From positions 46,840-110,839 of the forward strand of contig JANRJJ010000026.1 in assembly GCA_033764035.1 (NCBI GenBank): 64,000 nucleotides of DNA, given 5' to 3'. Shown one piece after another: positions 9,430 to 34,669 of the stretch. Made by a program: the position numbers and the translations under genes. This DNA comes from a bacterium. Lineage in GTDB: Bacteria; Chloroflexota; Anaerolineae; Aggregatilineales; Phototrophicaceae. The notes under the pieces were generated by a model. The model had not been told where the DNA came from, searched no databases, and worked only from the letters and a program-made list of their open reading frames with translations. How positions within the stretch are numbered: position 1 is the first letter of the stretch; each line of letters opens with the position of its first letter.

Positions 9430-9552
9430 GTCACCCTGCCTGCTACGCCTGGTCGTGTCTTCTTAGCCATACCCAACCCCCGCCTTTTGCGCTATGATTG
9501 CCCGCGTTTCAGTCCTTCTTTCCGTGCCATTTTCCACCGGAGTTCGGTTTCT

Positions 9553-11243: not shown

Positions 11244-11702
11244 ATGTCCGACGCGCAAAGCCAAAGCCAGCAAAGCCCCAATACCACCAGCAAGCCTATC
11301 GAGCCAAGCGAAGCGCACGTGCTGGTCGTGGAGGATAATGTCCCCAATTTCGTGCTGATCGCACGGATGTTAGCCTTCATGGGGGTTCAGCGCTGCGAAT
11401 GGAAAACGAGCGGCTGGCAGGTCGTTCAGTTTGCCGATACGCTGCCGCGAGTGGACTTGATTCTGATGGACATTCGCCTGCCTTATGAAGATGGCTACCA
11501 GGCGCTGCAAAAACTGCGCGCCAATTCCCGCCTGAAAGATACCGTCGTGTGCGCGGTGACGGCAGAAGCCAGCGAAGACCAGATGCGCCGCGCCAAAAAA
11601 GCCGGGTTCAACGGCTTTCTGGGCAAACCGCTTGATCCCGACCGTTTCCCTGCACAGATTCGCCGTCTGCTGCAAGGCGAAGAAGTATGGGAATGGAAAT
11701 AG
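11244..11702 (+). CDS. Single-domain response regulator (DivK/CheY-like receiver)
   Basis: VLVVEDN, DLILMDIRLP, AVTA, FLGKP; no output domain. Confidence 0.9.
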   Translation: MSDAQSQSQQSPNTTSKPIEPSEAHVLVVEDNVPNFVLIARMLAFMGVQRCEWKTSGWQVVQFADTLPRVDLILMDIRLPYEDGYQALQKLRANSRLKDTVVCAVTAEASEDQMRRAKKAGFNGFLGKPLDPDRFPAQIRRLLQGEEVWEWK

Positions 11703-11765
11703 CCGGGGGCGCTGCCGGATATTCAACGGTACCAACCCCCGGTCAACCCGCATAAAAGGGCATGG

Positions 11766-14081
11766 ATGATGATGAGCGACTCCGCAGGAACTGAACGCAG
11801 CCGGGAAAGTCTCGAAATCCTGTCCCTGGCACAGGCGCAGTACCAGGCTGCCGGGACGATCTACGGGTCGAACAACCCGGCGGAAATTCTGGACGCGCTG
11901 GTCAGCTTTGTCGAAACGGTCTATGAAGAAGCCGAACTGGGGTTGATTGACCCCGAAACCGACCCGCCGATCCTCTCGATCCTGGCCGAATACACCGACG
12001 GGCGCGTCACCCGTTCCCGTAAACGAGTGCGCCTGGACGAATACCCCGCCTACGACACCTACAGCGCGATTGAAGTGCTGAACATCAGCAACGTCGAAAC
12101 CGACCCGTTCATCACGCCGGAAGAACGCGATGGCCTGCGGGCGCTGAACGTGGCATCGCTGCTGGTCGTGCCGCTCGTCGTCACCCAACGGTTGATCGGC
12201 GTGCTGCGCTTCACCAGCGCCCAGCCCGTCAACCTGGGGCCTTCGCGCTTGCGGGCGCTGCGCAACCTGGTCGATCAGGCCGCGGTGGTGTTCGAAAATC
12301 AATCGCTGCTGCGCGATACCGAAATGACGCTTCAGGAAGTGCGGGCGCTGTACGATGTCAACCAGGCGATGCTGGCCGCCGTCGATACGATGGACATTCT
12401 GCGCGTGCTGCGGCAGAAACTCGCGCCGGATGCCGATACCATCCTGCATGTGGTCGCGGTCGATGCGCCAGCCGTACCGACCGATGCTGATGCAGCGCCG
12501 ATGCGGTTTCTGCTGCGGCAGATCACCACGCGCGGCTACGAAAGCGACGTGCAGCAGCCGATTTCCCTGAACGCCAGCGGCCAGCCCTTCGACTCTGACG
12601 GCAGTACCGCGACGAACATCACGCTGGTGGATGATGCCGGGCGCGTGACCGCGCAGACGCGCCACCCCCTGCATGAAACGCTCGTCGCCTACGGCATTGC
12701 CAGCTATGCCGTGATGAACATCCGCGAACGCGGGGCAATTCAGGATTACATCGCCATCACCTTCAAAAATCCGTTCACGTTCGATTCTCGCACCGCCCGC
12801 CTGTACGCCGCCGTCGCTGACCAGACCGCCATCGTGCTGCAAAACCAACGGCTGCTGGGCGAAGCGCAGATGAGCGCCGCGCAAGCGAACAACCAGCTTC
12901 GCACGCTGCAAATTCTGAACAACCTGTCCACGTCGATTGCGGCCATCAAGGCGGAAGATGAACTGCTCAACCGCGGTCTGCGCCTGGTCATCGAAACGCT
13001 CGGCGCGGATCACGGCGGGCTGATGCTGATGGACCCGGCCTTCAGCGTAGGGACGGTGGTCGCGGAATACCCGGCATTGGGGACGTTGGGACAGGAAATT
13101 CCGGTCGCCACCAACCCGATGGCGCAGATGATGCGCGAAGACCCGTACCGGTCGCTGGTGCTGGCGGATGTCGAAACCGATTCGCGCATCCCTGAACAAC
13201 TGCGGCAGTTTCTCGTCAACCATGCGGGCATTCGCGGCATGGTGATCCTGCCGCTGCAAGCGACCGATACGCTGATCGGCTCGATTGGCCTGGACATGTA
13301 CGAAAAAGGCCGCACCTTCACCGACGATCAGTTGCAGACCGCCATCACGATGGCGGCACAGATTGCGATTGCGCTGCAAAATGTGCGCCTGCTCAACGAC
13401 TCCAACCGCCGCGCCGCACAGCTTCAGCGCGTGGCGGAATTCGGCCAGTCGTTACAAGCATCGCTTCAGCAGGAAGAGATTCTCGACCTGATGGCGGGCT
13501 TCACCATGCAGATGCTCGCGGTCGATACCCTGGTGATCGGCCTGTACGACCCATTGCGCGGGGCGCTGCGCATCGTCACGCAGCGGCGTTCAGCCAGCGA
13601 TACCCAGCCGATCAGCAGCACCATCCCGCTGAGCGGCACGCTGCCAGGCCGCGCCTGGGATACGGGTCAAACGGTGGTGGTGGGGGATTTGCTCAATGAA
13701 CGCGGGCTGCCCGCGCTGCCGCATTCGCCGCTGAACACGCGCTCAGCGCTGATCGTCCCGATCATGAGCCGCAGCCAGCCAACCGGGTTGGTGATCGCCA
13801 CCTCCAGCCAGGCAAATGTTTACAACCCGACCGATGTCGCCATTTTCGAGCAGATGGTCACGCAGTTGAACGTCGCGCTGGAAAATTCGCAGGCGTTTCG
13901 CAAAAGCCAGCAGACCGCGCAGTATGAAGCGCTGATCAACGTGATTTCCGCACAGCTTCAGCAGTACACGGCATTAGATGATATGCTGCAAGTGACGCTG
14001 CGCGAACTGGGCAAAGCGCTTGGCGCACGCCGCGCCCGCGCCCGTTTTTCGACTCCGTCGCCATCGTCCGTCAGCGAGTGA
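11766..14081 (+). CDS. Cytoplasmic multi-GAF protein (4 GAF domains, no output domain)
   Basis: Four GAF-terminal helices (FENQSL, LQNQRL, LQNVRL, LENSQA), each preceded by P-x-x-x-G strands; no TM, HisKA or GGDEF motif. Confidence 0.82.
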   Translation: MMMSDSAGTERSRESLEILSLAQAQYQAAGTIYGSNNPAEILDALVSFVETVYEEAELGLIDPETDPPILSILAEYTDGRVTRSRKRVRLDEYPAYDTYSAIEVLNISNVETDPFITPEERDGLRALNVASLLVVPLVVTQRLIGVLRFTSAQPVNLGPSRLRALRNLVDQAAVVFENQSLLRDTEMTLQEVRALYDVNQAMLAAVDTMDILRVLRQKLAPDADTILHVVAVDAPAVPTDADAAPMRFLLRQITTRGYESDVQQPISLNASGQPFDSDGSTATNITLVDDAGRVTAQTRHPLHETLVAYGIASYAVMNIRERGAIQDYIAITFKNPFTFDSRTARLYAAVADQTAIVLQNQRLLGEAQMSAAQANNQLRTLQILNNLSTSIAAIKAEDELLNRGLRLVIETLGADHGGLMLMDPAFSVGTVVAEYPALGTLGQEIPVATNPMAQMMREDPYRSLVLADVETDSRIPEQLRQFLVNHAGIRGMVILPLQATDTLIGSIGLDMYEKGRTFTDDQLQTAITMAAQIAIALQNVRLLNDSNRRAAQLQRVAEFGQSLQASLQQEEILDLMAGFTMQMLAVDTLVIGLYDPLRGALRIVTQRRSASDTQPISSTIPLSGTLPGRAWDTGQTVVVGDLLNERGLPALPHSPLNTRSALIVPIMSRSQPTGLVIATSSQANVYNPTDVAIFEQMVTQLNVALENSQAFRKSQQTAQYEALINVISAQLQQYTALDDMLQVTLRELGKALGARRARARFSTPSPSSVSE

Positions 14082-14092
14082 GGGTTTACGCG

Positions 14093-15796
14093 ATGACTGC
14101 CCTGCTCAAGTGGTTGTTCAACATCGAACAGTACCCAGAACGTGCCGACCAGGATATGGCTCGCCTGACCTACGGCGTGACCTTCGTGCTGATCGTGTTC
14201 ATGCTGTTCATCAATTTCCTGGTGCCGTTCCTGGACGACGGTGGGTCGATTGCGTCGTTGTTCGGTACGTCGTTGTTCATCACCGTTTCCATGATTCTGA
14301 TGGTGGTGCTGGGCATTGGCACACTGGCCGCGGTGCGCACAGGCCGCCTGGATTTAGCCCGGTGGGGCGTGCCGCTGCTGTTCGTGGGCAGCCCGCTCTT
14401 TCAAAGCATCGGCACGGGCATTACCGGGACGGACGACGGCACACTGCTGGTCTTGTGCATCCTGGTCTTTGCGGTCTTTCAGCGCGAACGCGGCACGCTG
14501 ATCGGCTTCGTCGTGGCGATAGGTGCGCTGCTGCTGGGCAACTGGCGGCTGACAACCACCGACCCAACGCTGATCGACAGCCTGCCGAACCAGATTGCGC
14601 TGACGGTACAGCTTGTGGGCGTAGCGATGCTCATGTTCCTGTTCCTGCGCAACAACCGCATCGACGAAATGCAGCGCGTCAGTGCCGCCAGCGAAGAACG
14701 CCTGAAGCTGGCCGAGCTTACTCGTCAGATCGCCGGGAGCGTGTTACGCCGCACCGAACTGCAAGCGACTCTGACGACAGCCATCGAAGAAATTCGCACG
14801 CAGTACCCGCGTGCCTATCACGTCCAGATTTTTTTGGTCGATGAAGCGCGCCGCAACGCGAAACTGGCTGCCAGCACGGGCGAAATCGGCCAGATGCTTC
14901 TGGGACGCGGCCACAGCCTGACCGTCGGCAGCGTGAGCGTGATCGGCCAGGTGACGGCGAAAAACGAGATCGTGGTCGCCCGTTCCGGTTCGACGGCGAC
15001 GGTTCACAAGCGCAACGAATTTCTGCCGGAAACCGTCGTCGAAGCGGCGTTCCCGCTGCGCAGCGGGACGACCGTAATCGGCGCGCTGGATATGCAGAGC
15101 AAACAGGCCAATGCATTCCCGGACGACGAACTGCCGATCTTCCAGGCGCTGGCCGACAACATCGCCATCGCCATTGACAACGCCCTGCTGCTGGAACAAG
15201 CGGAAGTGCGCGTCGCGGAAAACAAACGCCTGGCCGAACAATCCGCCCAGGCGCTGCGCGAAGTCGAACGCCTGAACAGCCAGCTCACCGCCGATTCATG
15301 GCGCGACTACCTGGCCACCCAGGGCGCGGGCGGGGTGACCATCGATTTCGACAAGTATGAAACCACCACCCGCAGCGCCGATTTCACGCCCACGCTTTCT
15401 GAAGCGCTCCGTTTCAGCCATGTGGTGCAGCGTGAAACCGACGATGGGTTGATCATCGCCGCCCCGGTGCTGGTGCGCGGCCAGGTGATCGGCGCGCTGG
15501 AACTGGAACTGGAAGGCAAAGACCCGGTCGATCCCCAGGTGCTTGACCTGATCGAAACCGTGTGCGAACGGCTTGGCCTTTCGGCGGAAAGCGCCCGTCT
15601 GTATGAAGAAAGCCGCCGCGCCGCCCACCGCGAAGCCACGCTGAACGAGATCGCCAGGCAGATGCAGGCGACCAACTCGATCAACACGATCATGGCCGAA
15701 GCTGCACGCGGGATTCAAAGATCGTTCGGCGCGGAGCGCGTCGCCATTCGTCTGGGGCCGCCGCCTTCCGCGACGAACGGAACCCGGAAGGAGTAA
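14093..15796 (+). CDS. Membrane protein with about 6 TM helices, GAF and reduced GAF, no output domain
   Basis: Hydrophobic N-terminal 200 aa; YHVQIFLVD..ASTGE..SVIGQVT..GALDMQS; alternative GTG start at 14078 overlaps the upstream stop. Confidence 0.82.
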   Translation: MTALLKWLFNIEQYPERADQDMARLTYGVTFVLIVFMLFINFLVPFLDDGGSIASLFGTSLFITVSMILMVVLGIGTLAAVRTGRLDLARWGVPLLFVGSPLFQSIGTGITGTDDGTLLVLCILVFAVFQRERGTLIGFVVAIGALLLGNWRLTTTDPTLIDSLPNQIALTVQLVGVAMLMFLFLRNNRIDEMQRVSAASEERLKLAELTRQIAGSVLRRTELQATLTTAIEEIRTQYPRAYHVQIFLVDEARRNAKLAASTGEIGQMLLGRGHSLTVGSVSVIGQVTAKNEIVVARSGSTATVHKRNEFLPETVVEAAFPLRSGTTVIGALDMQSKQANAFPDDELPIFQALADNIAIAIDNALLLEQAEVRVAENKRLAEQSAQALREVERLNSQLTADSWRDYLATQGAGGVTIDFDKYETTTRSADFTPTLSEALRFSHVVQRETDDGLIIAAPVLVRGQVIGALELELEGKDPVDPQVLDLIETVCERLGLSAESARLYEESRRAAHREATLNEIARQMQATNSINTIMAEAARGIQRSFGAERVAIRLGPPPSATNGTRKE

Positions 15797-15800
15797 GCCC

Positions 15801-17459
15801 ATGAGCGCCCGTTTTTCCAGCATTTCATCGCTCGCACCCACGTTGGGCGACCTGCAAAAGCTGCGCACGCGCTTCATACAGGCGTTCAGCGCTATGCTGA
15901 CCGTTGCCTCCCTGCTGCTCTCGGTCGTGCTGTTCGCGCTGCCCGCGCTCGATACCGCCCAGCCCATCGGCCTGAATACCCGCGTGTATACCCTGGCGAT
16001 TGGGGCCGTCAGCACGGTTCTGTTGGTGCTGTCGCTGCGCGGCTATTCCCTGTTCGCGGCCATCGGCCTGATTGCGGCGCTGACGGGGATCGCGCTGGCC
16101 GCCCCGCCAGATACGCCCGCGCTGGGGCTGCTGGCGCTGATTGCGGCGGCGGCGCTGTGCAGCCGCCCGGTGTTCATCGCCCTTGCGCTGGTGATTGCCG
16201 GAAAAATGGCGCTCGAAATTGCGCAGTTGATCGCCGCGACCGAAACCCTGTCGTTCGAGCTGGTGCGGTTCATCCTCACCCGGCTGCTGCTGCTGGTCAT
16301 CCCGCTGATCATCCGCTACGTGTTCGAAGTGACCGAACGCAGCCTGGCCGAAGCGCAGCGCACATCGATTGTGCTGCGCACCAGCGCGGAAATTGGCGCG
16401 GCCAGCACCCAGCTGACCGACCTGAAAACCCTGTTCGACCGCGTGATCGACCTGGTGCAGGAACGGTTCAACTTCTACCATGTGCAGGTGTTCGTGATCA
16501 ACGAAACGGGCGACCAGGCCGTGCTGCAAGCCAGCACGGGCGAAATTGGGCGGCGGCTGCTGGCACGCAGTCATCAGCTCGCCGTCGGGTCGCAGAGCGT
16601 GATCGGCCAGGTCACGCTGCGCGGGGAACCGGTCGTCGCGCTCGATACCGACCGCGATGAAGTCCATTTTCGCAATGAACTGCTGCTGAACACCCGTTCC
16701 GAACTGGCCGTGCCAATCCGCGATGGGGCGGTGGTGGTGGGCGCGCTGGACGTGCAAAGCATCGAGCCGAATGCCTTCGACCGCACCGACGTGGAAGCGC
16801 TTCAGGTGATCGCAGACTTTTTGGGGACGGCGTTGCGCAATGCGGCGGTGTACGATGAACAGGCGCGGGTGGTGCAGCAGAATCAAGCGCTGCTGCGCGA
16901 AGCGGAGGAAAACATCCGGCTGATTCAGCGGTTGAACCGCGAACTGACCCGCGCATCGTGGGAATCGTTCAGCCAATCGGATGCATCGCCGTTGGGCATT
17001 CAGGCCAAAGGCGGCCAGGTGGTCGCCAACCCGCACTGGACGGACGCGCAAAAGACCGCCGGGGAAGAACGCCGCACGGTCACCCAGCAGGACGGGGAAA
17101 AATCGCTCGTCGCGGTGCCGCTCATGCTGCGTGGAGAGGTGATCGGCGCGCTGGAAGTGGAGAACACCGGGCAGGCCGACACCACGACCGTCGCCATGCT
17201 GGAAGATGTCGCGCAGCGCTTGGCGATCAGCCTGGAAAATGCCCGCCTGTATGAAGACTCGCGGGATGCCACCGCCCAGGAACAGTTCATCAACACGCTG
17301 GCGGCGCGCTATCAATCGGTCACATCGGTGGATGAACTGCTGCGGATGACGCTGGTCGAACTGAGCGAGACGCTCGGCGCGACGCGCGGGTCGATCCGGC
17401 TGGGCAAACTCGAACTGGCGAATGACGCGCCAGTCAGGAACGGAGCAGCCGAAACATGA
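15801..17459 (+). CDS. Membrane protein with TM bundle, GAF and reduced GAF, no output domain
   Basis: TM helices followed by FYHVQVF..ASTGE..TRSELAVP..GALDVQS. Confidence 0.82.
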   Translation: MSARFSSISSLAPTLGDLQKLRTRFIQAFSAMLTVASLLLSVVLFALPALDTAQPIGLNTRVYTLAIGAVSTVLLVLSLRGYSLFAAIGLIAALTGIALAAPPDTPALGLLALIAAAALCSRPVFIALALVIAGKMALEIAQLIAATETLSFELVRFILTRLLLLVIPLIIRYVFEVTERSLAEAQRTSIVLRTSAEIGAASTQLTDLKTLFDRVIDLVQERFNFYHVQVFVINETGDQAVLQASTGEIGRRLLARSHQLAVGSQSVIGQVTLRGEPVVALDTDRDEVHFRNELLLNTRSELAVPIRDGAVVVGALDVQSIEPNAFDRTDVEALQVIADFLGTALRNAAVYDEQARVVQQNQALLREAEENIRLIQRLNRELTRASWESFSQSDASPLGIQAKGGQVVANPHWTDAQKTAGEERRTVTQQDGEKSLVAVPLMLRGEVIGALEVENTGQADTTTVAMLEDVAQRLAISLENARLYEDSRDATAQEQFINTLAARYQSVTSVDELLRMTLVELSETLGATRGSIRLGKLELANDAPVRNGAAET

Positions 17460-19249
17460 TCGGTGAAGTGCGCATCCCTTTGCTGCAACTGAATTACCCG
17501 TATGGCGACCCGCTGATCCGCCAGCGCGCCCAGGCGCTGCTGTACATGATCGCGATTGTCGCGCTTGGATGGGCAATTCTGCTGGTCATCACGCTTTCCC
17601 AGGTCGCGGACGAGATTTACGAGCCGGGGTTCATCATCCCGACGATTGTCGCGCCGATCAGCTATGTGTTCATCTATCGCCTGGTGCAAACCGGGCAGGC
17701 GCAGTTGGCATCGCTGCTGTTCGTCAGCCTGATGCTGATCGGCACTGCGCCCGTCGCCATCATCAGCCCGGAATTGTTCCTCAGCTTCCTGCTGATCATT
17801 CCGCTGGTGGCGGCGGGGGCGCTGTTCAACCGCCTGGGCTTTCTGGTGGTGCTGGCGGTCATCCTGGTGGCGCTGCTCACACGGGCGTTCGTGCTGCTCA
17901 ACGTCGATACCGTCATCCGCTATATCCCATCCGTCAACGGCGCGGGCGAAATTGCCCTGGCCGGGCTGGTGATCGTGATCGCGGCGGTGTTCCTGTTCGG
18001 CTTCACGGGCGGCACCGAACGCATCGCGCAGAGTTCGCTCAACGACCTGCACCACTGGGAGCTTTTCGCCCGCCTGAACCTGCGCGGCGAAACCGACCCG
18101 GATCGCATCGCACAGCGCTTGATCGACTTGCTTCAGGCCGAACTCGATTACAACCTGGTGCAGATTTATTTTGCCGACGAAACCGGCAGCATCACCCGGC
18201 GGGTGCGCAGCGGCGGCGCGGTGGATCGCCAGTTCAGGGTGCGCATCGACGAACTGCCGACGATTGGCGAAGTCGCCCGCGAAAAGCGGCTGCGCGTGTT
18301 CCGGCGCGATTCCTCCACGCTGCGCGAATACCCGCTGGCTCCATCCCGCATCGGCATCGCCCTGCCCATCCTGTACAACGGAATCGTGCTGGGCATCCTG
18401 GATGTGCAAACGCGCCGCGCCGATGCGCCGTCGGAAAACCAGATCAACGCGCTGAGCGCGCTGGCCGATGCGCTGGCCGAACTGCTGATCAATGCGCGCC
18501 GCCAGACCGAACTGCAAAAGACCGTAGCCGATCAGGAAGGCGTGATCGCCACCTTCCGCACCCGGCTGACCGAACTGCAACAGCGCGGCGCACAGCTCGT
18601 CGGCGGGAACTGGATGCGCTACCTGGAAGGGCGCGGCGGCCAGGCGTTCGGCTTCGATGTCGCGGACCACACCCCGGGTGGCACCGACGGCGACTTTGGC
18701 AGAGGCGACCGCACCCCGGAAGGCAAAGCCGTCCCCCGCCCCGCCCATGACCTGCCGCCCGCCATTCGTGAGGTGCTTCAGCGCGGCGACCTGTTCATCG
18801 AACCGGGCGCGGACGGGACATCGGTCGTGCATGTGCCGATTCTGCTGCGCGAAGAAGTGTTGGGCGGCATGATGTTCACGCTGCCGCCGGAACGCCCGCT
18901 GACCGACCGCCAGATTGAAGCGCTGCGGGCGATCTCTAACCGTCTGGGGCAGTCGCTCGAAAACAACCGTCTGTTTGAACAATCCCAGGCCCAGGCGCAG
19001 CGCGAACGTAAAGCCAGCGAGATCAGCGCCCGCCTGCTGAGCGCGACGACGATTGAGAACCTGCTCGATTTGGCGGTGATGAATTTCAACGACGCGCTCG
19101 GCGCAATTTCGACACGGGTCTATATTCAGCCGGATTTCGTCCAGCCGGATACCTTCCGCCCAGACGCACCCGACCCCGCGCACCCACCCACCCGCAGCGG
19201 GAACGGGAACGGAAATGGTGCTGCATCGCACGGCGCGAACGGCGCATGA
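17456..19249 (+). CDS. Membrane protein with TM bundle, divergent GAF and reduced GAF, no output domain
   Basis: ATGA overlap with previous gene; TM helices; IALPILYNGIVLGILDVQT; VPILLREEVLG..LENNRL. Confidence 0.8.
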   Translation: MIGEVRIPLLQLNYPYGDPLIRQRAQALLYMIAIVALGWAILLVITLSQVADEIYEPGFIIPTIVAPISYVFIYRLVQTGQAQLASLLFVSLMLIGTAPVAIISPELFLSFLLIIPLVAAGALFNRLGFLVVLAVILVALLTRAFVLLNVDTVIRYIPSVNGAGEIALAGLVIVIAAVFLFGFTGGTERIAQSSLNDLHHWELFARLNLRGETDPDRIAQRLIDLLQAELDYNLVQIYFADETGSITRRVRSGGAVDRQFRVRIDELPTIGEVAREKRLRVFRRDSSTLREYPLAPSRIGIALPILYNGIVLGILDVQTRRADAPSENQINALSALADALAELLINARRQTELQKTVADQEGVIATFRTRLTELQQRGAQLVGGNWMRYLEGRGGQAFGFDVADHTPGGTDGDFGRGDRTPEGKAVPRPAHDLPPAIREVLQRGDLFIEPGADGTSVVHVPILLREEVLGGMMFTLPPERPLTDRQIEALRAISNRLGQSLENNRLFEQSQAQAQRERKASEISARLLSATTIENLLDLAVMNFNDALGAISTRVYIQPDFVQPDTFRPDAPDPAHPPTRSGNGNGNGAASHGANGA

Positions 19250-19265
19250 ACGGAGTTAGCCAACC

Positions 19266-21557: not shown

Positions 21558-21575
21558 TGTAGGGGAACGACGGAC

Positions 21576-27500: not shown

Positions 27501-30458
27501 ATTGACGATGTGCTGTCGAATACCCAACTCGACATCATGGAACAGGCGGGGATTGAAAGCATCGGCGTGCGGTCGGTAGCGTTCCTGCCGCTGCGCGTGA
27601 GCGGTCAATCGATTGGCACGCTCGTGATCGGGTCGCGCCAGCCGTACACGTATACGGATCGTGACCTGCGCATCTACCGTTCGTTCTCTGAACAGGCATC
27701 GCTGCGCCTGGAAGCGACGCGCCTGCTGGAACAGACACAGCGCCGCGCCCGTCAGCTTGCCACCTCTGCCGAAGTGAGCAGCTACGCCAGTTCGCTGCTC
27801 GACCTGCAATTCCTGCTGCCGCGCATCGTAGACCTGATCAAAGACCAGTTCCGCTACGACCATGTGCAGATTTTCATGATGGACGATGCCGATGAATTTG
27901 CCGAACTGCGCGCCAGCACGGGCGAACCGGGGCGGCAGCTTCTGGGAATCAAGCACCGCTTGGCGAAAGGGTCGTCGTCGGTCATCGGCCAGGTGACGCT
28001 GACCGGGCAGCCGACCATCGCCGCCGATACCGCCGATGCCAGCGTGATCCACCGTCCGAACCCGTACCTGCCGAACACCCGCTCGGAAATGGCGATCCCG
28101 CTCATGCTCAAAGGCCGCATCGTCGGCGCGCTGGACGTGCAGTCGAACCAGCCGAACGCCTTCGATGAGGACGATATTTCGGTGCTGCGCACGCTGGCGG
28201 CGCAGATTTCCGTCGCCATCGACAATGCCGAATTGTACGAAGACGCGCAGCGCCGTGCGTCGGAAACCTCCTTCCTGTTCAACGTGACCAGCCGCGCCGC
28301 CGCCGCTGAATCGCTCGATGAAGCGCTGGCGAACGTGGCGGATGAAATGCTGAGCGAACTCGATGCGTCCGCGACGGTGATCTACCTGCCGCGCCAGTAC
28401 ATCGAAGGGGACGACGAAACGTCGGTGTTCACGCAGCTTGACCCGGTGGCGCTGGCGGGGAACGAGCCGTCCAATGGCGGCCAACCGCTCAGCGAGATCA
28501 ACAGCGTGCGCCTGGACGACGGCTCCAGCCTGCTGGCACAGGCGGGCGCAGCGCGGCGCTCGTTCATCCTGGGCGACCTGGAGCAGGATCGGCGCTACCT
28601 GCCCATCAACGCCGAATCGCGGTCGGCCATCATCGTACCGCTGGTGACGGGCGCGCAGTTGGTCGGGCTGGTGGTGGTCGAAAGCCTGCTGCTGGAAGCG
28701 TATGACGACAACGTGCTGCGCACGATGTTCACGCTGGCCGGGTCGCTCAGCGCCATCGTCCAGAACCAGCAGCTTCTGGAACAGGTGCAGCGCCAGAACG
28801 ACGCGCTGCGCGAACTTGACCGCCTGAAAAGCGATTTCCTGGCGAACATGAGCCACGAACTGCGTACCCCGCTCAATTCGATCATCGGGTTCAGCCGCGT
28901 GATCCTGAAGGGTATCGACGGGCCGCTGACCGAAATGCAGGAACAAGACCTGAGTACGATCTACAATTCCGGGCTGCACCTGCTTAACCTGATCAACGAC
29001 ATCCTTGACCAGGCCAAGATCGCGGCGGGCAAAATGGATTTGCAGTTCGATTACTTTGAAATGAAAACCGTGATCGACGGCGTGCGCTCCATCGGCATTG
29101 GGCTGGTGAAGGAAAAGCCCATCGATATTCAGGTGCATCTGGCTCCTGGCCTGCCCAAAGCGTTTGGCGATGAGTTCCGCACCCGCCAGGTGTTGATCAA
29201 CCTGGTTTCGAACGCGACCAAGTTCACGCGGCAGGGGACGGTCACCATCGACGTGTACACCGTGAACGAACCCGAAACCGGGCGGCTGATGATCCGCGTG
29301 GACGTGACCGATACGGGCATCGGGATTGCCGATAAAGACCTGCCGCTGCTGTTCGAAGCCTTCCGCCAGGTGGATTCGTCGCTCACGCGCACCCAGGGCG
29401 GGACGGGGCTGGGGCTGCCGATTGCAAAATCGCTCGTTGAAATGCAGGGCGGGGAAATGCTCGTGCAGTCTCAGGTGAACGTCGGTTCGACGTTCAGCAT
29501 CCTGGTGCCAACCGAACCCGTCGTCGATGCGCCGGATAAACCGGGCGATATGGCCAGAAAAAGCACCGGGCGGCTGGCCAAGACTGCGCCACTTTCGCCA
29601 ACGGGCGCGCTTCAGGCGATTGTCGATGAAACCCAGGAACGCCCGAACGTGGGCGGCGATGATACCGCCTTCCCGCCCACACCGACCCGCCCGCCGATGA
29701 TGGAAAAGCGCCAGATTCTGCTGATCGAAGACAATCCCGATATGGTCGATCAGTTCCGGCGGGCGCTTCAGCGCGAAGGCTTCGATATTTTCGCCGCGTC
29801 CATCCCGCTGGAAGCCGAAGCGATGGCCAGCGGCCTGCACCCCACCATCATCATCATGGACGTGAACTTTGCCGATGGCCAGGGCTGGCAAATGCTGAAG
29901 CGCATGAAAAGCCGCGATGATACCCGCGATATTCCCGTCGTGGTCGTCACCATCAACCCGGATAAAGAGGATATTCTTGCGGAAGGCGCGTTCCTGTACG
30001 TGGCGCGTCCGTTCGTGCCGGAACAAATCGTCGAAGCGGTGCGGCTGGCCGAAGAAGAAGCGCGCATCGACAAAATCCTGATCATCGATGACCAGCCCGA
30101 AAGCGTGCGCGTGCTGGAAGACCTGCTGAACGAACAGGGGCGCTACAAGGTGTTCGCCGCCCCCAGCGCGATGGACGGGATTTCGATGGTCGCCCGCCGC
30201 CGCCCCAACCTGGTCATCCTTGACCTGCGGATGCCGGAAATGGACGGTTTCCAGGTGATCAGCGAATTGCGCAGCAACCCGGAAACCGCTACGATCCCGA
30301 TCATCGTGGTGACGGGTGATGTGCTGAACCCGGCGGAACGCGACCAACTGACCAACTTATCGGTGCTGTACAAGGCCGACATCAACGCCGGGCAGCGCCG
30401 CCAGTTCATGGACGGGGTGAAGCAGCACCTGACCCGCACCAACGGCGAACATTCGTGA
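21576..30458 (+). CDS. Giant hybrid sensor histidine kinase (Cache-like, HAMP, about 11 GAF, PAS, HisKA, HATPase, 2 REC), 2960 aa
   Basis: H-box FLANMSHELRTPLNSIIG; N-box NLVSNATKFT; G1 DTGIGI; G2 GGTGLGL; REC IIIMDVN and VILDLRMP; PAS LETLPAGVLVLD. Confidence 0.92.
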   Translation: MSMSSSPETRRRTASVRTRIMRPIAFVVLGIFLILGLSGLFGIQASSRAIIRGAHLTDITLLREQLNDALSDVTTDVRAAANDPVTRRFATTSLASVVGEDVNLAQAALAERLEALVNDHLDTYLAVRYVTFTGAIWTEVTNAGGITRAATRIRPNELNDDPTLVTALGGTSGDVIASDVDFRVNNDAPASTRLIPFVRFASPVFTETSTTDIAGVIQIDFAIPQVISQINATGAAVIAAQEGRRLLVVDDEGRILADSGQPNTNFLRNIANRVPVVFDQAYPVLAAAVENIETVDLAESDDLIYTVDQLDFSSGAQRFWRLILVDERGTAAAYQVYLGLGVLVLFIGFGGVVAVLIDSVVSRNLRPLRDVADLTQTIGRSYTDSREPLETGDEFGQLIEAFESMASEQFRLRDELEAQRGRFTRNLDIAARIGRETLSLREGDTLINRAINLICDEFGYYHAQLFRIDDAGLNAVLVVSRGVIGQELLARGYRVPINDASVIGTVAAHGQPILIPDATLKAGDQADEAEGLLAETRSQMAVPLLSGGEVIGVLDVQSQNVNDFREEDLRMVQILADQIAVALENARLLKETSERLTEIDSLNRQLSSGQQQAETLNTQIDSVYRYDLLTVKRGGDTGPLSSDQPSMTIPISIRGEVIGALEAAAPQGIDFTAGDEAIMRAVADRVGIALENARLFELQQSSLQETSRLYELVRALNEANSLEDVLHSIVMSVIPDAVSVQIGVFDEYADSTGPLWMEILAEWTSQQETQRDVRMMGIQLHVPDHPLLAAMQPNQITLVNDTERDTRLDDVLRAIIATTGGRSMVLIPVTVRGTWRGVMMAHFPEPRTFGLEEGRVYNALIDQAGVVIDNRMLLRSNEITLKQVERLYSASRAINMAQTAQDLVRAAVGGNDNLYRDYELVMFEGDIDASGWPTRIRLAAYSEGTDVQASSDVYDVVIATDSPLRYREPQIITPQGEIDDDDTPHANNLTQYVRQRGNRFAAVFPLFSANQPIALFLVTSKEAREEISSEDFDVYRALTGQMSTVLQNRRLLDQTAASLDETRRLYAASRAIATAPDKETVYEIAARYLNMTNAAQTRLSVLLTPSQSADAPFVEYTHLFTRGTAYTSDIDVGTRIPSSLVPFGELTRQARTQAFNRSSELAVQPALHALMQRSGSLSAAIISIQSRQRWFGVIFCESDKPAAFDDAYLRFAQAVGDQVAIAVESLSLFSEAQQQAQRALALAEAGQLANQIGAQFEKSIGEVFRRVAEPAAYDRWILMLHSPGQHGLRRVAEYNVDTGLIDSDAPGSLMPLNVVGVPLLDAFRLGRTLLVNDPSSYPNFPRNYAGLDDFGDYIGKHVAVPVFSGSQTIGALAVGRRLDALDLDESDEQLARTLAAQVGIAVENRRLFVEAESERSNLRSILETLPAGVLVLDARTFTPVQFNQQAVELLGRSISISRPFDIGEYNVYRASSRQPFANDELPIFESARSGRLASSDDVMVMLEDGSANYLLVNAAPIVDAGGSTTAIAAAFQDISRLRGLETTLQETLNETMALYDTTRALAAGTTLEALLDQIINRLGTLQPAPDNAFVLLLEPEGLRVARALTTPTDGYSLPDELLTPDVTMFIPDVADDLSLDDAVRLALLKQNIRAVASLPMLTRSRAQAPLGWLVVVYQQAQESLIERAGFLGNLADNAAVAIDNRNLFRDTQAALQEANNLYRATTTISRVSGTEQLSEALRSTIESLKPDVMAAYLFVDEQGSPFVTELFNENQDGAPLDFAMLIERHGLGQVNALFINDLRAITDPNPLEMALQSVGTIRALGLIQMRSKTLPAGCLIVGYHRPRTFDESIARYLSAISDSASVIIDNILLFGQIQNTLEETSTLYQASRALSDAANPVDILDVVTAHLHSHTRTISTAFVAMLVTRSWESPNAMVRVAASWRNPAEADEIVDLAGITLTEEQFPAWKLLAVNDVYTIDDVLSNTQLDIMEQAGIESIGVRSVAFLPLRVSGQSIGTLVIGSRQPYTYTDRDLRIYRSFSEQASLRLEATRLLEQTQRRARQLATSAEVSSYASSLLDLQFLLPRIVDLIKDQFRYDHVQIFMMDDADEFAELRASTGEPGRQLLGIKHRLAKGSSSVIGQVTLTGQPTIAADTADASVIHRPNPYLPNTRSEMAIPLMLKGRIVGALDVQSNQPNAFDEDDISVLRTLAAQISVAIDNAELYEDAQRRASETSFLFNVTSRAAAAESLDEALANVADEMLSELDASATVIYLPRQYIEGDDETSVFTQLDPVALAGNEPSNGGQPLSEINSVRLDDGSSLLAQAGAARRSFILGDLEQDRRYLPINAESRSAIIVPLVTGAQLVGLVVVESLLLEAYDDNVLRTMFTLAGSLSAIVQNQQLLEQVQRQNDALRELDRLKSDFLANMSHELRTPLNSIIGFSRVILKGIDGPLTEMQEQDLSTIYNSGLHLLNLINDILDQAKIAAGKMDLQFDYFEMKTVIDGVRSIGIGLVKEKPIDIQVHLAPGLPKAFGDEFRTRQVLINLVSNATKFTRQGTVTIDVYTVNEPETGRLMIRVDVTDTGIGIADKDLPLLFEAFRQVDSSLTRTQGGTGLGLPIAKSLVEMQGGEMLVQSQVNVGSTFSILVPTEPVVDAPDKPGDMARKSTGRLAKTAPLSPTGALQAIVDETQERPNVGGDDTAFPPTPTRPPMMEKRQILLIEDNPDMVDQFRRALQREGFDIFAASIPLEAEAMASGLHPTIIIMDVNFADGQGWQMLKRMKSRDDTRDIPVVVVTINPDKEDILAEGAFLYVARPFVPEQIVEAVRLAEEEARIDKILIIDDQPESVRVLEDLLNEQGRYKVFAAPSAMDGISMVARRRPNLVILDLRMPEMDGFQVISELRSNPETATIPIIVVTGDVLNPAERDQLTNLSVLYKADINAGQRRQFMDGVKQHLTRTNGEHS

Positions 30459-32203
30459 CATCTATCCCAGGGAGGGACTTACGCCCTCCCTGGATCAGTT
30501 TTCAAGGTTGCAACGTGGTCATCGTGCATCAGCCGCAAGGCACTACCAAACATATCGAACTGGAATGTATCAACTGCCATACCCGCGTCCCGCTCGATAA
30601 GCATGTGAGCGGGTGTCCATCGTGCGGCGAAAACATTCTGGAGGCACGCTACGATCTGTCGCAGATCGACGTGATCGAATGGCTGGCGCTTCTGCGCCAG
30701 CGCCAGCCGGGGTTGTGGCGCTACCATGAAGTGCTGCCGCTGTACGATGCGCGCAATATCGTCAGCCTGGGCGAAGGCGGCACCCCGCTGATCAAATCGC
30801 GGGCGCTGGCTGCCAGCCTGGGGCTGAAACACCTGTATTTCAAGGACGAACGCCAGGGGCCGACCGCCAGCTTCAAGGATCGACAGGCGGCGGTCGCCAT
30901 TTCCGCGCTGAAAGAGATCGGCGTGGATGAGGTCGTGGTCGCCAGCACGGGCAACGTCGCCATCGCCTACGCTGCCTATGGCGCACGGGCGGGGATCAAG
31001 GTGTGGGCGTTCTTCCCCAGCCTGACCCCCGGCGACAAGATGCGCGAAGCCGCCCTGTACGGCGCGGAGGTGATCAAGATCACCGGGACGTATGACCAGA
31101 CCAAAGAGATCGCCGCCCGCTTCGCCAAGCGCAAGGGCATCTTCCTGGATCGCGGGATCAAGTCGGTGGCGGCCATCGAAGCCATGAAAACGATGGCCTA
31201 TGAAATTGGCGAACAGCTCGGCTACGAGCTGGACGGCGGGCGGACATGGCGCGCCCCGGACTGGTTCATCCAGGGGGTGAGCGGCGGCATGGGGCCGATT
31301 GGCGTGGGCAAGGGCTTCCGCGAAATGCTCGATTTTCGGCTGATCGACCAGATGCCCGCGCTCGGCGTGATTCAGTCATCGGGGTGCGCGCCGATGGTCG
31401 AAGCCTTTCAGCGCGGCCAGCGCATCGCCACCCCGGTCGAAAACCCGGAGACGATCATCGCTACGCTGGCGACGGGCAACCCAGGCCGCGCCTATGAACT
31501 GCTGTACGATTATGTGCAGGCTTACGGCGGCCATTTCATCAGCGCCAGCGATGAAGAAGCATTCCACGCCACGCGGCTGGTGGCGCGCAACGAAGGTATT
31601 TCGGTCGAACCTGCGACCGCCGTCACATTCGCGGGCGTGTTCAAGCTGGTGCAGCGCGGGATCATCAAGGCCGATGATGTCGTCGTCGTGAACGTTTCCG
31701 GCCACACCATGCCCGTCGAAACCACCATCCTGGGCGACCAGTGGCAGCAGTCGCTCGATCTGTCGCAGCGCGTGAGCGCCCCGGTCATGCCCCAGGAAGG
31801 GTTGTACGCCGCACTCGAACAGATCGAATCGCAGGTGCGGCGCGTGGTGATCATCGAAGATAACCAGGATGCCGCCCGGCTGATCCGCCGGATGCTGCAA
31901 GCCAAAGGTACGTTCGATGTGCAGATCGTCCACGATGGCAAGGAAGGGCTGGAACTGGTGCGCACCCAGCGCCCGGATATGGTGATCACCGACCTGATGA
32001 TGCCCGACGTGGACGGTTTCCAGGTGATCGAAACCCTGAAGGCCGACCCGGAACTGGCGCACATCCCGATTGTGGTGATCACGGCCAAAGAACTGACCGC
32101 CAAAGAACGGGCGCGGCTGACCGATCAGGTCGAAATGCTGCTGGCAAAGGGATCGTCGATTGACGAAAGCGTGATCGAAACGCTCGTGACCAAACTGGAA
32201 TAG
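30455..32203 (+). CDS. Threonine-synthase-family PLP enzyme with N-terminal Zn ribbon and C-terminal receiver domain
   Basis: CINC..CPSC; LGEGGTPL; PLP lysine in PTASFKDR; ASTGNVA; EPATA; REC VVIIEDN..ITDLMMP..VITA..LAK. True start may be a GTG near 30515-30524. Confidence 0.88.
   Translation: MTSIPGRDLRPPWISFQGCNVVIVHQPQGTTKHIELECINCHTRVPLDKHVSGCPSCGENILEARYDLSQIDVIEWLALLRQRQPGLWRYHEVLPLYDARNIVSLGEGGTPLIKSRALAASLGLKHLYFKDERQGPTASFKDRQAAVAISALKEIGVDEVVVASTGNVAIAYAAYGARAGIKVWAFFPSLTPGDKMREAALYGAEVIKITGTYDQTKEIAARFAKRKGIFLDRGIKSVAAIEAMKTMAYEIGEQLGYELDGGRTWRAPDWFIQGVSGGMGPIGVGKGFREMLDFRLIDQMPALGVIQSSGCAPMVEAFQRGQRIATPVENPETIIATLATGNPGRAYELLYDYVQAYGGHFISASDEEAFHATRLVARNEGISVEPATAVTFAGVFKLVQRGIIKADDVVVVNVSGHTMPVETTILGDQWQQSLDLSQRVSAPVMPQEGLYAALEQIESQVRRVVIIEDNQDAARLIRRMLQAKGTFDVQIVHDGKEGLELVRTQRPDMVITDLMMPDVDGFQVIETLKADPELAHIPIVVITAKELTAKERARLTDQVEMLLAKGSSIDESVIETLVTKLE
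30467..30493. other. GC-rich hairpin just after the giant kinase stop
   Basis: 10-bp stem CCAGGGAGGG/CCCTCCCTGG, loop ACTTACG, no U-tract. Confidence 0.6.
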
Positions 32204-32211
32204 CGGACAAC

Positions 32212-33456
32212 GTGACCAACAATCGCACCATTCTGTACATTGAAGATGACGCGGCGAGCCGTTCACTGGTTGAACGCACGTTGAAATTTCACGGGTATCA
32301 TGTGCTGGTGGCCGACTGCGGGCTGGCCGGGATCGACCTGGCGCGCAAAGAAACGCCCGACCTGATCCTGACCGACATCAACCTGCCCGACCTGACCGGG
32401 CGCGAGATCACCACGCGCTTGCGCAGCGACCCGCAGTTCGAACACACGCCGATTGTCGCGCTCACCGCGCAATCGTTGGGCGAACAGCGCGAACTGGCGC
32501 TGGCCGCTGGCCTGACCGGGTACCTGACCAAACCGCTGGATATTGAAGCGCTGCCGACCCAGGTCGATTTTTTCCTGAAGGGCGGCAGCGAAAAGCTCGA
32601 CCAGCAAAAGCTGAGCGAAGCCCAGACGCGCTACACCCGTGAAGTGGCCGAACGGCTGGAAACGCGCATCCGCGAACTGGAGGCGCTCAACCAGCAGTTG
32701 CGCCGCCTTGACCGCATGAAGGACACCTTCATCCAGATCACGGCGCACGAACTGCGCACCCCACTCACGCTCGTGTTCGGCTACAGCCGCCTGCTGGAAG
32801 ACAACCCGATGCTGAAGCCGCATTTTATGGGCGATGCCAATCTGCGCCTGCTCATGGACGGCATGAACCAGTCCATCGGGCGGATGCAGAGCATCATCGG
32901 GGAAATCGTCACCATGAGCCGCATCATGACCAACCAGATCGATCTGGTGGTGGGACCCACCGACCTGGGCAACATCGCCGCCAAAGCGATCAAGAGCTAT
33001 GAAACGGCGCTGAAGGAACGGAGCCTGAAAGTCGCCTTCGACCGGGCGACCTTCCCCAACGGGATGCGCGCCGACTGGGAACTGATCGAACTGGCGCTGA
33101 AAAACCTGATCAGCAACGCCATCAAGTACACGCCCGACGGCGGGCTGATCGAGATCACCAGCAAGACCGAAGGCGAACAGGTGCGCGTCTCCGTGCGCGA
33201 TCACGGGATCGGCATTTCCAAAGACGACCAGCGCGGCATCTTCGAGCGCTTTCATACCACGGGCGATACGCAGCTTCATTCGACCAGCAAGACCGCGTTT
33301 CGCGGCGGCGGGATTGGCCTGGGACTGGCGATCACCAAAGGGATCGTTGAAGCGCACGGCGGGCGCATCTGGGTGGAAAGCGATGGCTACGACCCGGCGG
33401 CGCTGCCAGGGAGCGCGTTCATTTTTACAATTCCTTTGATCGCTGAACGATCATGA
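32212..33456 (+). CDS. Hybrid histidine kinase, REC-HisKA-HATPase
   Basis: ILYIEDD..LILTDINLP..LTKP; AHELRTPL; NLISNAIKYT; DHGIGI; GGGIGLGL. Confidence 0.9.
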   Translation: MTNNRTILYIEDDAASRSLVERTLKFHGYHVLVADCGLAGIDLARKETPDLILTDINLPDLTGREITTRLRSDPQFEHTPIVALTAQSLGEQRELALAAGLTGYLTKPLDIEALPTQVDFFLKGGSEKLDQQKLSEAQTRYTREVAERLETRIRELEALNQQLRRLDRMKDTFIQITAHELRTPLTLVFGYSRLLEDNPMLKPHFMGDANLRLLMDGMNQSIGRMQSIIGEIVTMSRIMTNQIDLVVGPTDLGNIAAKAIKSYETALKERSLKVAFDRATFPNGMRADWELIELALKNLISNAIKYTPDGGLIEITSKTEGEQVRVSVRDHGIGISKDDQRGIFERFHTTGDTQLHSTSKTAFRGGGIGLGLAITKGIVEAHGGRIWVESDGYDPAALPGSAFIFTIPLIAERS

Positions 33457-33508
33457 TTGATGTAGAATAGGGACATCGATCCGTTGAGCGGCGCATTTTT
33501 TACGTCCC

Positions 33509-34669
33509 GTGCATATCAAAATCGTAACACCCTCTCCCCGCGCACAAGGCATCATGGCGGCGTTTCTTACCCCGCTGTTCCTGGGCGTTGCGCCGATCTT
33601 CGGCAAGGCGGCCATCAACGCGGGCGCTGATCCGTTCACGGTGGCGGCCTTTCGCACGGTCGTCGCGGTGGCGCTGCTGTGGGGGCTGTACCTGCTGTGC
33701 TTTCGCAAATATCTGTATATCTATCCGGCGGGGCTGCTCGGCTGCGTGGTCGTCGGGACGATCAACGGGATCGGGTCGCTGTTCTTCTATGGCGGCCTGG
33801 GGCTGCTCGATGCGTCGCTTTCGCAGCTTCTCAACGGCATGTACCTCATCTTCGCTATCCTGCTGGCGCACCTGGGCGGCGAACGCATCGACCGCCGCAC
33901 CGCGCTGCGCGTTGGGCTGGCAATGTCGGCGCTGATCCTGATCACCGGGTTCGGCAGTGAACCGATCAACTGGCTGGGGGTCGGGCTGATGCTGGCGAAC
34001 GCGCTCATGTTCGCCGGGACGGTGATCCTGAGCCAGTACGTGCTGCGCGAAATGCCGTCACCGACCGCCGCGCTGTACATCCTGACCACGATGGCCGTGA
34101 TCGTGATCATGGTGTGGGCGGGTGTAGGCCGCCCGGTCACCGGGGAGGTGCTGACCTCCGCGCTGCCCGCGATTGCCATTCTGGGCGTGACGACGGCGCT
34201 TTCCCGGCTGACAATGTTTGCCAGCGTGCAGGTGTTCGGCAGTTTGCGCACGGCCATCATCGCGGTGGCCGAAATTGGTGTCGCGCTTTCGCTGGCGTAC
34301 CTGGTGCTGGGGGATCGGCTTGCGCCGGTGCAGGTGATCGGCGTGGCGCTGCTGGGCATTTCGCTGCTGCTCATCCGCGCCAAAGACCTGACCCCGCGCC
34401 TGTTCAACCCCAGCAGCCTGCTCATCCGCGATGTGGCGAGCATCCAGTTTCAGCGCATCGCGTTTCACCGCGCCTTCGGCAAAGCCGAACAGGACAACGA
34501 ATTCGGCGTGATGAGCCAGATCACCACGATGGAAATGCAGATGATCCAGCGGATGATGGGCGCGAAGGAAAGCCCGGTCGATCCGTTCCCGCTATCCAAA
34601 GAGCAGGCGCTCGCCCCTGGGGATTTTGAGCGCCTGCTTCAGCCCAAACCCGCCCCGCCAGGGGATTAG
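33509..34669 (+). CDS. EamA/DMT family transporter with roughly 90-aa soluble C-terminal extension
   Basis: About 10 TM helices in two repeats; hydrophilic tail from RAKDLTPRLF. Confidence 0.85.
   Translation: MHIKIVTPSPRAQGIMAAFLTPLFLGVAPIFGKAAINAGADPFTVAAFRTVVAVALLWGLYLLCFRKYLYIYPAGLLGCVVVGTINGIGSLFFYGGLGLLDASLSQLLNGMYLIFAILLAHLGGERIDRRTALRVGLAMSALILITGFGSEPINWLGVGLMLANALMFAGTVILSQYVLREMPSPTAALYILTTMAVIVIMVWAGVGRPVTGEVLTSALPAIAILGVTTALSRLTMFASVQVFGSLRTAIIAVAEIGVALSLAYLVLGDRLAPVQVIGVALLGISLLLIRAKDLTPRLFNPSSLLIRDVASIQFQRIAFHRAFGKAEQDNEFGVMSQITTMEMQMIQRMMGAKESPVDPFPLSKEQALAPGDFERLLQPKPAPPGD

Follow-up and report, generated by a model that had tools for sequence, protein, structure and literature searches.

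The genes of interest lie in a 64,000-nucleotide stretch of DNA (hereafter, the window) from a genome of the Chloroflexota family Phototrophicaceae (assembly GCA_033764035.1, contig JANRJJ010000026.1). A sequence-only reading of the window had pointed to ten co-directional, closely spaced genes that combine receivers, GAF-domain sensors and histidine kinases with a pyridoxal 5'-phosphate (PLP)-dependent enzyme and an EamA transporter: a candidate signalling cluster. Using a program-made list of open reading frames (ORFs) for coordinates and a Pfam scan of the ten ORF products (cut-off E<=0.01), we recovered all ten ORFs, on the + strand and spanning positions 11244–34669. The junctions between them are short, as proposed (−4 to +63 nt), with GTGA and ATGA overlaps at 14078 and 17456.

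The cluster begins with REC1 (11244–11702), a single-domain receiver (Pfam Response_reg, 1.8e-19) in which the ED, D, T and K-P residues are present. Next is a soluble multi-GAF protein (11766–14081) with no transmembrane helix and with a cluster-specific C-terminal tail (37 bits to a hidden Markov model (HMM) of the tail). Previously described as carrying four GAF domains, this protein shows three GAF stretches with confidence (Pfam GAF_2/GAF/GAF_3), while the fourth, N-terminal one is plausible by eye only. Three membrane paralogs follow. mGAF_A (14078–15796) consists of 5–6 transmembrane helices, a GAF domain of a distinct subtype (the signature GAF; see below), a long helix, a reduced GAF and the tail (by Pfam, hydropathy, AlphaFold 2 (AF2) and Foldseek). 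The same architecture is found in mGAF_B (15801–17459; Pfam, signature-GAF HMM 158 bits, tail HMM 65 bits) and in the more divergent mGAF_C (17456–19249; Pfam, 86 and 51 bits, respectively). The sixth gene encodes the HAMP-GAF protein (19266–21557): a transmembrane helix, a weakly dCache-like periplasmic domain, a second transmembrane helix, HAMP, a signature GAF, a reduced GAF and the tail (Pfam HAMP and GAF; signature-GAF HMM 157 bits).

The second part of the cluster is dominated by the gene for a 2960-aa hybrid histidine kinase (21576–30458), in which Pfam recognizes—between a HAMP domain preceded by two transmembrane helices and a periplasmic domain, and two C-terminal receivers (REC-a and REC-b)—at least eight GAF domains (two of signature type), PAS, HisKA and HATPase. 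It is followed by the enzyme gene (30515–32203), whose product joins a ThrC-like fold-type-II PLP enzyme (Zn ribbon and PALP; Pfam PALP 3.2e-72) to a C-terminal receiver (5.8e-20). The start of this gene is corrected here: on the public gene call and on orthologs it is the GTG at 30515, not 30455, and the big kinase and enzyme genes are therefore separated by 56 nt. This gap contains a GC-rich hairpin (30467–30493, + strand; a 10-bp stem with 8 G-C pairs and a weak T tail) found in a scan for terminator-like structures. Hairpins of −20 kcal/mol or stronger, unrelated in sequence, occupy the same gap in at least seven of 40 listed relatives, and the window hairpin could serve as a partial terminator or mRNA-stability element, and would then uncouple sensor and output expression. 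The last two genes encode a REC-HisKA-HATPase kinase with no other sensor domain (32212–33456; Pfam; hereafter, REC-kinase) and an EamA/DMT transporter with ~10 transmembrane helices and a cytoplasmic tail of ~90 aa (33509–34669; Pfam EamA in two stretches, hydropathy). Pfam counts five receiver domains across the ten proteins, in agreement with the sequence-only reading, and, also in line with it, returns no HTH, GGDEF, EAL, MCPsignal, CheW or Hpt domain in any of them.

Public annotation names the receiver-fused enzyme 'threonine synthase', and threonine synthase is indeed its nearest NCBIfam relative: TIGR00260 is matched at 172.0 (cut-off 167.1), and NF006050 is missed at 289.8 (cut-off 303). 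The AF2 model (predicted local distance difference test score (pLDDT) 85) retrieves 2D1F, 6CGQ and 2ZSJ as top Foldseek matches, at a target template-modelling (TM) score of 0.85. Across 71 orthologs, K121 (SFKDR), N147 (STGN), the Gly-rich loop 256–261 (SGGxGP) and S395 are invariant or nearly so. However, three motifs that the genome's canonical ThrC and 2ZSJ retain are replaced by family-specific invariant residues: STGNT by STGNV (V148), NSxNPxR by D212-R-G214-I-K216-S-V-A-A, and GNAGN by SGGMGP. We take the Thr of STGNT, the N-S-x-N-P-x-R motif and the Asn of GNAGN to be the residues that bind the phosphate of O-phosphohomoserine (Thermus AP5 complex, 1V7C work). In addition, two other ThrC-family genes of the same genome, on contigs C20 (260 bits) and C3 (198 bits; NF006050 306, above 303), pass the NCBIfam threonine-synthase cut-offs. 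A housekeeping threonine synthase (EC 4.2.3.1) was rejected on these two grounds: the loss of the phosphate-binding motifs, and the presence of two better ThrC genes elsewhere in the genome. Since the PLP and alpha-carboxylate sites are kept and the phosphate motifs are lost, PLP and an alpha-amino acid other than O-phosphohomoserine are very probably the ligands of the enzyme domain.

The receiver of the fusion occupies aa 441–562, behind a low-confidence, disordered linker of ~40 aa (399–439), and its residues E448, D449, D493, T523 and K545 are invariant or at least 90% conserved among the 71 orthologs. Separately, six stand-alone metagenome proteins of 376–435 aa (P0121, P0131, P0132, P0134, P0136 and P0139) share the active-site signature of the enzyme (STGN[VI], D/x-G-x-K, SGGxGP and GCxPM) and carry no receiver. 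A search of the genome collection for such stand-alone relatives returned only Chloroflexota fusions, and their neighbours gave no functional hint.

Turning to the kinases, the H-box, N, G1 and G2 boxes of the big kinase were read directly and are intact. Its first receiver, REC-a (within 29600–30050), has Arg in place of the conserved Lys (YVARPF), as in most orthologs, and may be a pseudo-receiver. A search for Hpt (PF01627) in the 95%-complete genome found none (the same search was positive in 9 of 14 control genomes), and Hpt was likewise not found in 19 of 31 relatives. A genome that lacks Hpt is unlikely to run a classical His-Asp-His-Asp relay, and direct His-to-receiver transfer is the simplest reading. 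On these sequence grounds, phosphotransfer most likely proceeds directly from kinase to several competing receivers, the enzyme receiver included. The DHp helices of the big kinase and REC-kinase differ at most positions after the His, which suggests different partners for the two kinases. We also compared receivers by similarity (the closest match of the enzyme receiver is REC-b of the big kinase, 39%; that of the REC-kinase receiver is REC0, a receiver introduced below, 41%); these values are too weak for partner assignment.

The conservation of the gene neighbourhood was assessed in 80 loci around enzyme orthologs and 80 around REC1 orthologs, each from a different species-level genome; all are labelled Chloroflexota, except for a few that are apparently mis-binned. 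Gene order is kept in these ~160 related loci, but not in their flanks; a lack of synteny of the enzyme–receiver and EamA genes with the GAF genes in other genomes, which would have spoken against the sequence-only reading, was thus not observed. The whole-cluster order recurs in 57–71 of 62–75 assessable related loci. After REC1, the order is always soluble GAF, mGAF_A, (mGAF_B), mGAF_C, HAMP-GAF, big kinase, and each of these genes is present in 48–57 of 62 assessable loci (48 for soluble GAF, 57 for mGAF_A, 49 for mGAF_B and 57 for mGAF_C), with REC1 and the enzyme 16–22 kb apart on the same contigs. A homolog of the big-kinase C-terminus lies directly upstream of the enzyme–receiver gene in 57/65 assessable loci. 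Downstream of the enzyme, REC-kinase is found in 43/73 loci, and EamA within 2.5 kb in 46/70. The reciprocal test, starting from EamA orthologs, places REC-kinase directly upstream in 61/73 loci and the enzyme within 2.2 kb upstream in 55/73; in at least 12 genomes with no EamA beside the enzyme, a REC-kinase–EamA pair is located on another contig.

Beyond this lineage, the module takes other forms. Distant genomes (L076, L083) carry a compact version: REC0, REC1, a single GAF kinase of ~1900 aa, enzyme–receiver and EamA. Other variants consist of four HAMP-GAF proteins, kinase, enzyme–receiver and EamA (in another family), or REC, kinase, enzyme–receiver and REC (in another class). When the Chloroflexota set was widened, with Caldilineaceae, Ardenticatenaceae and Anaerolineales among the groups covered, 70 of the 71 complete family members proved to be fusions; a kinase is encoded upstream in 53/66. 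The kinase and enzyme–receiver pair is thus the invariant core, often accompanied by single-domain receivers and the REC-kinase–EamA pair; the output-less GAF genes represent an expansion specific to the lineage, inserted into the compact core between REC1 and the kinase. In total, the module is found in hundreds of Anaerolineae and related genomes, many of them from wastewater and sediment. A Caldilinea aerophila metagenome-assembled genome (MAG) carries ThrC-REC followed by REC-kinase; with a cultured genus thus among the carriers, the predictions below are testable at the bench. As a separate observation, contigs bearing this cluster (60–95% identity) have been deposited in MAGs under the labels Bacteroidetes, Pleurocapsa, Oceanobacillus, Vicinamibacterales and Pseudanabaena (L024, L036, L093, L162, L227, L282 and others); these labels are probably binning errors in public records.

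One element of the conserved arrangement is absent from the window cluster: REC0, which directly precedes REC1 in 71/75 related loci. An ortholog (78% identity) is encoded elsewhere in the same genome, behind two GAF-PAS kinases (C8:43357–43731). Just upstream of REC1, 18-nt tandem repeats (10848–11001, at the 3' end of a gene that begins at ~9553) match the 3' tail of REC0 over 49 nt (94% identical). Together with the adjacency of REC0 and REC1 in relatives, this shared repeat suggests that the ancestral cluster was broken apart either by a rearrangement at the repeat or by a mis-assembly. The genome also contains a second module (L167; C22:118000–137999, minus strand), consisting of a 1627-aa GAF/PAS kinase with three signature GAFs, then a ThrC-like enzyme that carries two receivers (49% identity to the window enzyme), two single receivers, a GNAT acetyltransferase and a LuxR-type HTH protein.

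The genes flanking the window cluster are not syntenic with it in other genomes, and hence the conserved unit ends at the boundaries originally proposed. On this basis, the membrane protein gene at 9553–11169 and the genes for a carboxyltransferase, an ABC-F protein, a GH43 protein, an OmpR-type regulator and a TauE protein were rejected as members; the genes 3' of the cluster are convergent. An upstream ORF of 1041 aa (8044–11169) is an artefact, its first half running antisense to the carboxyltransferase gene (7816–9429, minus strand); the real upstream gene begins near 9553 and encodes a protein with one transmembrane helix and no Pfam match. The OmpR-type response regulator (38619–39395) has no kinase beside it and adjoins the TauE-family gene on the opposite strand; it, too, is not syntenic with the cluster elsewhere.

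The signature GAF is common to mGAF_A, mGAF_B, HAMP-GAF and the big kinase, and is recognizable as YHxQIF...ASTGExG...VGSxSVIGQVT...RNExLP...GALDxQS. A signature-GAF HMM, run against every six-frame ORF of the genome, matched only the four membrane proteins, two GAFs of the big kinase (at about aa 444–560 and 2076–2192) and three GAFs of the C22 kinase, at 73–182 bits; the next best match scored 12 bits. Similarly, an HMM of the last 50 residues matches only the five output-less proteins in the genome. The distribution of the subtype was then compared with that of the enzyme–receiver fusion in an evenly sampled set of 301 genomes of the phylum, with the signature GAF scored at E<=1e-25. Each feature is present in 33/301 genomes: 32 have both, one has only the fusion, one has only the GAF and 267 have neither (Fisher p 8e-41, a value inflated by shared ancestry). 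In fusion genomes, the signature GAFs lie in runs, with up to 14 or more domains, on the contig beside the enzyme. This co-occurrence is the strongest evidence that sensors and enzyme share one pathway, and makes a link between the GAF ligand and the chemistry of the enzyme somewhat more credible.

All five output-less proteins end ~50 aa past the second GAF, in the conserved tail, with no catalytic or DNA-binding domain after the GAFs. The AF2 model of mGAF_A (pLDDT 88.7) contains five long N-terminal helices, the GAF, a 65-residue helix, the reduced GAF and two further helices; the tail is poorly placed in the model and carries a nearly invariant IRLG motif. Foldseek searches with this model returned GAF and tandem-GAF proteins only (PDE2A, PDE5A, CyaB2, phytochrome GAF-PHY), with no hidden output domain. 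The 5–6-helix membrane sensor domains have no loops (hydropathy, AF2), and those of mGAF_A, mGAF_B and mGAF_C match no Pfam family; a weak Wzy_C match in the membrane region of mGAF_A (14078–14740; E about 1e-3) was not trusted. A true Wzy_C protein (L168:13255–14604) does occur upstream of two kinases and REC0 in the ancestral arrangement, in 11/80 loci, which may be coincidence. The periplasmic domains of HAMP-GAF and the big kinase resemble dCache weakly (dCache_1 E=0.002, below the cut-off), and no R-x-W-Y type amino-acid motif was seen in them by eye. Given their placement after HAMP or the last transmembrane helix, the GAF domains are presumably cytoplasmic.

The proteins of the cluster differ in how fast they evolve. 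REC1 is the slowest (82–97% identity to orthologs in 80 genomes), followed across the same genomes by enzyme–receiver (58–87%); REC0 stands at 59–73%, REC-kinase and EamA at ~44–79%, and the GAF sensor proteins at 27–66%. Where the enzyme domain keeps 58–87% identity, the sensors of the same genomes are down to 27–58%. By this comparison, constraint is far stronger on the output half than on the sensors.

The transporter consists of two Pfam EamA repeats (10–11 hydropathy segments) and a cytoplasmic tail that is partly conserved, with motifs kept in 47 orthologs. Searches for its substrate gave no NCBIfam family at E<=0.001, no PDB sequence match and no orthology to RhtA, YdeD or YddG. Within the cluster, EamA is tied most tightly to REC-kinase (61/73). 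The sequence-only reading had named the enzyme and an exporter as the sole non-signalling outputs. The part of this claim that concerns the absence of DNA-binding and similar domains stands; as to the remainder, REC1 and REC0 could themselves be outputs, and EamA could be an importer or a co-sensor.

We favour the following explanation, to which we assign a probability of roughly 0.58: the cluster is a conserved Chloroflexota signalling module, in which a kinase-controlled PLP-dependent amino-acid enzyme is coupled to a transporter, and the output-less GAF proteins serve as co-sensors. Gene content, intact catalytic and phospho-acceptor residues, synteny and co-occurrence are the observed basis of this explanation; the phosphorylation partners, the effect of phosphorylation on enzyme activity, the enzyme product and the direction of transport are inferred. 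The ancestral core would comprise REC0, REC1, a GAF-rich histidine kinase, the ThrC-like PLP enzyme–receiver, REC-kinase and EamA. The five output-less proteins that would have been inserted between REC1 and the kinase in this lineage are probably accessory co-sensors, and may influence kinase activity by way of the homologous GAF/helix module. The kinase, in turn, would phosphorylate receivers directly (His to Asp), the enzyme receiver among them; phosphorylation of that receiver would switch a PLP-dependent reaction on an alpha-amino acid other than O-phosphohomoserine, and EamA would move the substrate or product of the enzyme.

Several observations weigh against this explanation. Firstly, the co-occurrence has few independent gains or losses behind it. 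Secondly, the linkage is imperfect: 25–35% of loci have no EamA adjoining the enzyme, and in a few genomes the enzyme is alone. Thirdly, the hairpin between the kinase and enzyme genes could split transcription, and a search of public sequencing runs for the locus matched no RNA run (only three sediment DNA runs, with ~5% of words each). Fourthly, the C-terminal position of the receiver on a disordered linker is unlike that in CheB or PleD, and a docking mechanism cannot be read from the AF2 model. Finally, the catalytic phosphate site of threonine synthase is gone, and so the domain might bind, rather than convert, its ligand.

This last point leads to the strongest of the alternatives, which we consider improbable but worth keeping in view: the ThrC-like domain may be an input, a PLP-dependent ligand-binding pseudo-enzyme that reports an amino acid, with the attached receiver serving as a phosphate sink gated by the metabolite, or as a modulator of the kinase. 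REC1 (with REC0) would then be the true output, in the manner of CheY or DivK. The MocR/GabR regulators, which have an aminotransferase-like domain, provide an analogue for a PLP domain as ligand sensor. Such a role would fit the loss of every O-phosphohomoserine phosphate-binding motif, the flexible C-terminal tether of a receiver that is less conserved than the PLP domain, and the position of REC1 as the most conserved protein in the cluster (82–97%), at the REC0-REC1 head of 71/75 clusters; without Hpt, extra receivers are also likely to compete for phosphate. However, the PLP domain is as conserved as an enzyme would be and keeps all of its PLP-contacting motifs, the transporter is linked to the enzyme in most genomes, and no partner for REC1 is encoded nearby.

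A second, rather less probable alternative concerns EamA, and is compatible with the favoured explanation. By analogy with the transporter–kinase pairs DctA-DcuS and BceAB-BceS, EamA could be a co-sensor ('trigger transporter') for REC-kinase, its flux being read through the conserved cytoplasmic tail. REC-kinase has no input domain other than REC, the two genes form the tightest pair in the cluster (61/73) and travel together to another contig when apart from the enzyme (at least 12 genomes), and the tail of EamA carries conserved motifs; against this, the proposal draws on adjacency and analogy only.

In a third alternative, which we regard as unlikely, the module is an autoinducer-like loop: the enzyme would make an amino-acid-derived signal, EamA would export it, and the cluster's own sensors would detect it, following the logic of CqsA/CqsS and LqsA/LqsS. 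The co-inheritance of PLP enzyme, transporter and many sensors is consistent with such a loop, and the finding of the GAF subtype only alongside the enzyme–receiver fusion fits a ligand linked to the enzyme. Loop-less transmembrane-helix sensor domains would, in our estimation, suit membrane-soluble ligands. The window proteins have such domains of 5–6 helices, and CqsS/LqsS-type kinases are likewise transmembrane-helix proteins (PMC3376566). Yet a diffusible product and its transport direction are putative only, the enzyme is of fold type II rather than the CqsA type, EamA is not beside the enzyme in 25–35% of loci, and the GAF domains are cytoplasmic. An exported product would more plausibly be sensed by the weakly dCache-like periplasmic domains, or by the membrane domains, than by the GAFs.

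A bolder version of the same idea, and one that we hold to be equally doubtful, is a make-and-sense circuit of filamentous Chloroflexota. Here, kinase phosphorylation would activate the remodelled ThrC-fold enzyme, EamA would move a non-proteinogenic amino-acid-type product, and the cluster-specific GAF would bind that product or its precursor, closing the feedback. If true, the circuit would represent both a new chemical class of bacterial cell–cell or cell-state signal and a new receptor type.

Lastly, the region might be no functional unit, but independent signalling operons and a metabolic gene brought together by chance. The possible terminator-like hairpin before the enzyme gene and the absence of the locus from every RNA run searched would agree with this reading; it is contradicted by order and content kept in ~160 loci from different species whose flanks are not conserved, by the near-perfect phylum-wide co-occurrence and by the duplicate kinase–enzyme pair in the same genome.

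We return, then, to a kinase-controlled enzyme coupled to a transporter, and to its place among known systems. The system is a variant within two-component signalling, not a new category. Transcription, second-messenger enzymes and motors are the known targets of two-component systems; a PLP amino-acid enzyme that is paired with a transporter and controlled directly by phosphorylation would extend this list to a metabolic class of output. Two further subjects for study emerge from the cluster: membrane GAF proteins that have no output domain and co-evolve with a kinase, and a lineage with many hybrid kinases and no Hpt domain at all. The view that no characterised system has this composition held up: a literature search found no paper on a ThrC– or PLP–receiver fusion, or on this cluster.

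The closest parallels for the fusion are the enzymatic response regulators—the CheB methylesterase, the PleD/WspR diguanylate cyclases and the RpfG HD-GYP protein—in which, as here, a canonical receiver and an enzyme share one polypeptide beside a histidine kinase gene. The window protein differs from these in three respects: (i) the output is a fold-type-II PLP amino-acid enzyme, a fusion for which the literature search found no example, (ii) the receiver is C-terminal, on a flexible linker, rather than N-terminal to the effector, and (iii) the product of the enzyme is neither a known signalling nucleotide nor a modified signalling protein. The enzyme part itself resembles canonical ThrC (2ZSJ, 2D1F, 6CGQ/6NMX, 1UIM/1V7C) in fold (TM score 0.85), the Lys motif SFKDR and the STGN loop, and PRK08197-type ThrC in its N-terminal Zn ribbon. 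It departs from canonical ThrC in having STGNV, DRGIKSVAA and SGGMGP for STGNT, NSxNPxR and GNAGN, in scoring below the NF006050 cut-off, and in carrying a receiver.

On the sensory side, the convergence of several sensor proteins on one kinase recalls GacS/RetS/LadS of Pseudomonas, where some act by direct protein contact and not by phosphotransfer. Unlike those proteins, the accessory proteins of the window have no kinase, DHp or receiver domain; they have only a GAF/helix module and a tail in common with one another and with the kinase, with which they would interact. Their predicted GAF–long helix–GAF architecture is that of the tandem-GAF segments of PDE2/5/6 and the cyanobacterial CyaB1/2. 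Here, however, no catalytic domain follows the GAFs, the N-terminal input is either a 5–6-helix membrane domain or a dCache-like/HAMP one, and the second GAF is reduced and followed by a conserved alpha1-beta1 'half-GAF' tail. The cluster is also distinct from a chemoreceptor array (MCP-CheW-CheA), in that the ten proteins have no Pfam match to MCP signalling, CheW or CheA domains.

The big kinase, with its HisKA-HATPase-REC-REC arrangement, resembles the hybrid kinases with attached receivers of Hpt-dependent phosphorelays (ArcB/BarA/TorS, LuxQ-LuxU), but there is no Hpt in the kinase, the cluster or the genome, and no DNA-binding response regulator in the cluster. Finally, the Cqs/Lqs systems (CqsA/CqsS, LqsA/LqsS/LqsR; PMC3376566) share with the window cluster the placement of a PLP-dependent synthase gene beside sensor kinases built on transmembrane helices. 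The CqsA/LqsA family consists of fold-type-I, acyl-CoA-using PLP synthases (PMC3376566) that carry no receiver, whereas the window enzyme is of fold type II and ThrC-like and has a receiver of its own. The Vibrio pathway uses the phosphorelay protein LuxU.

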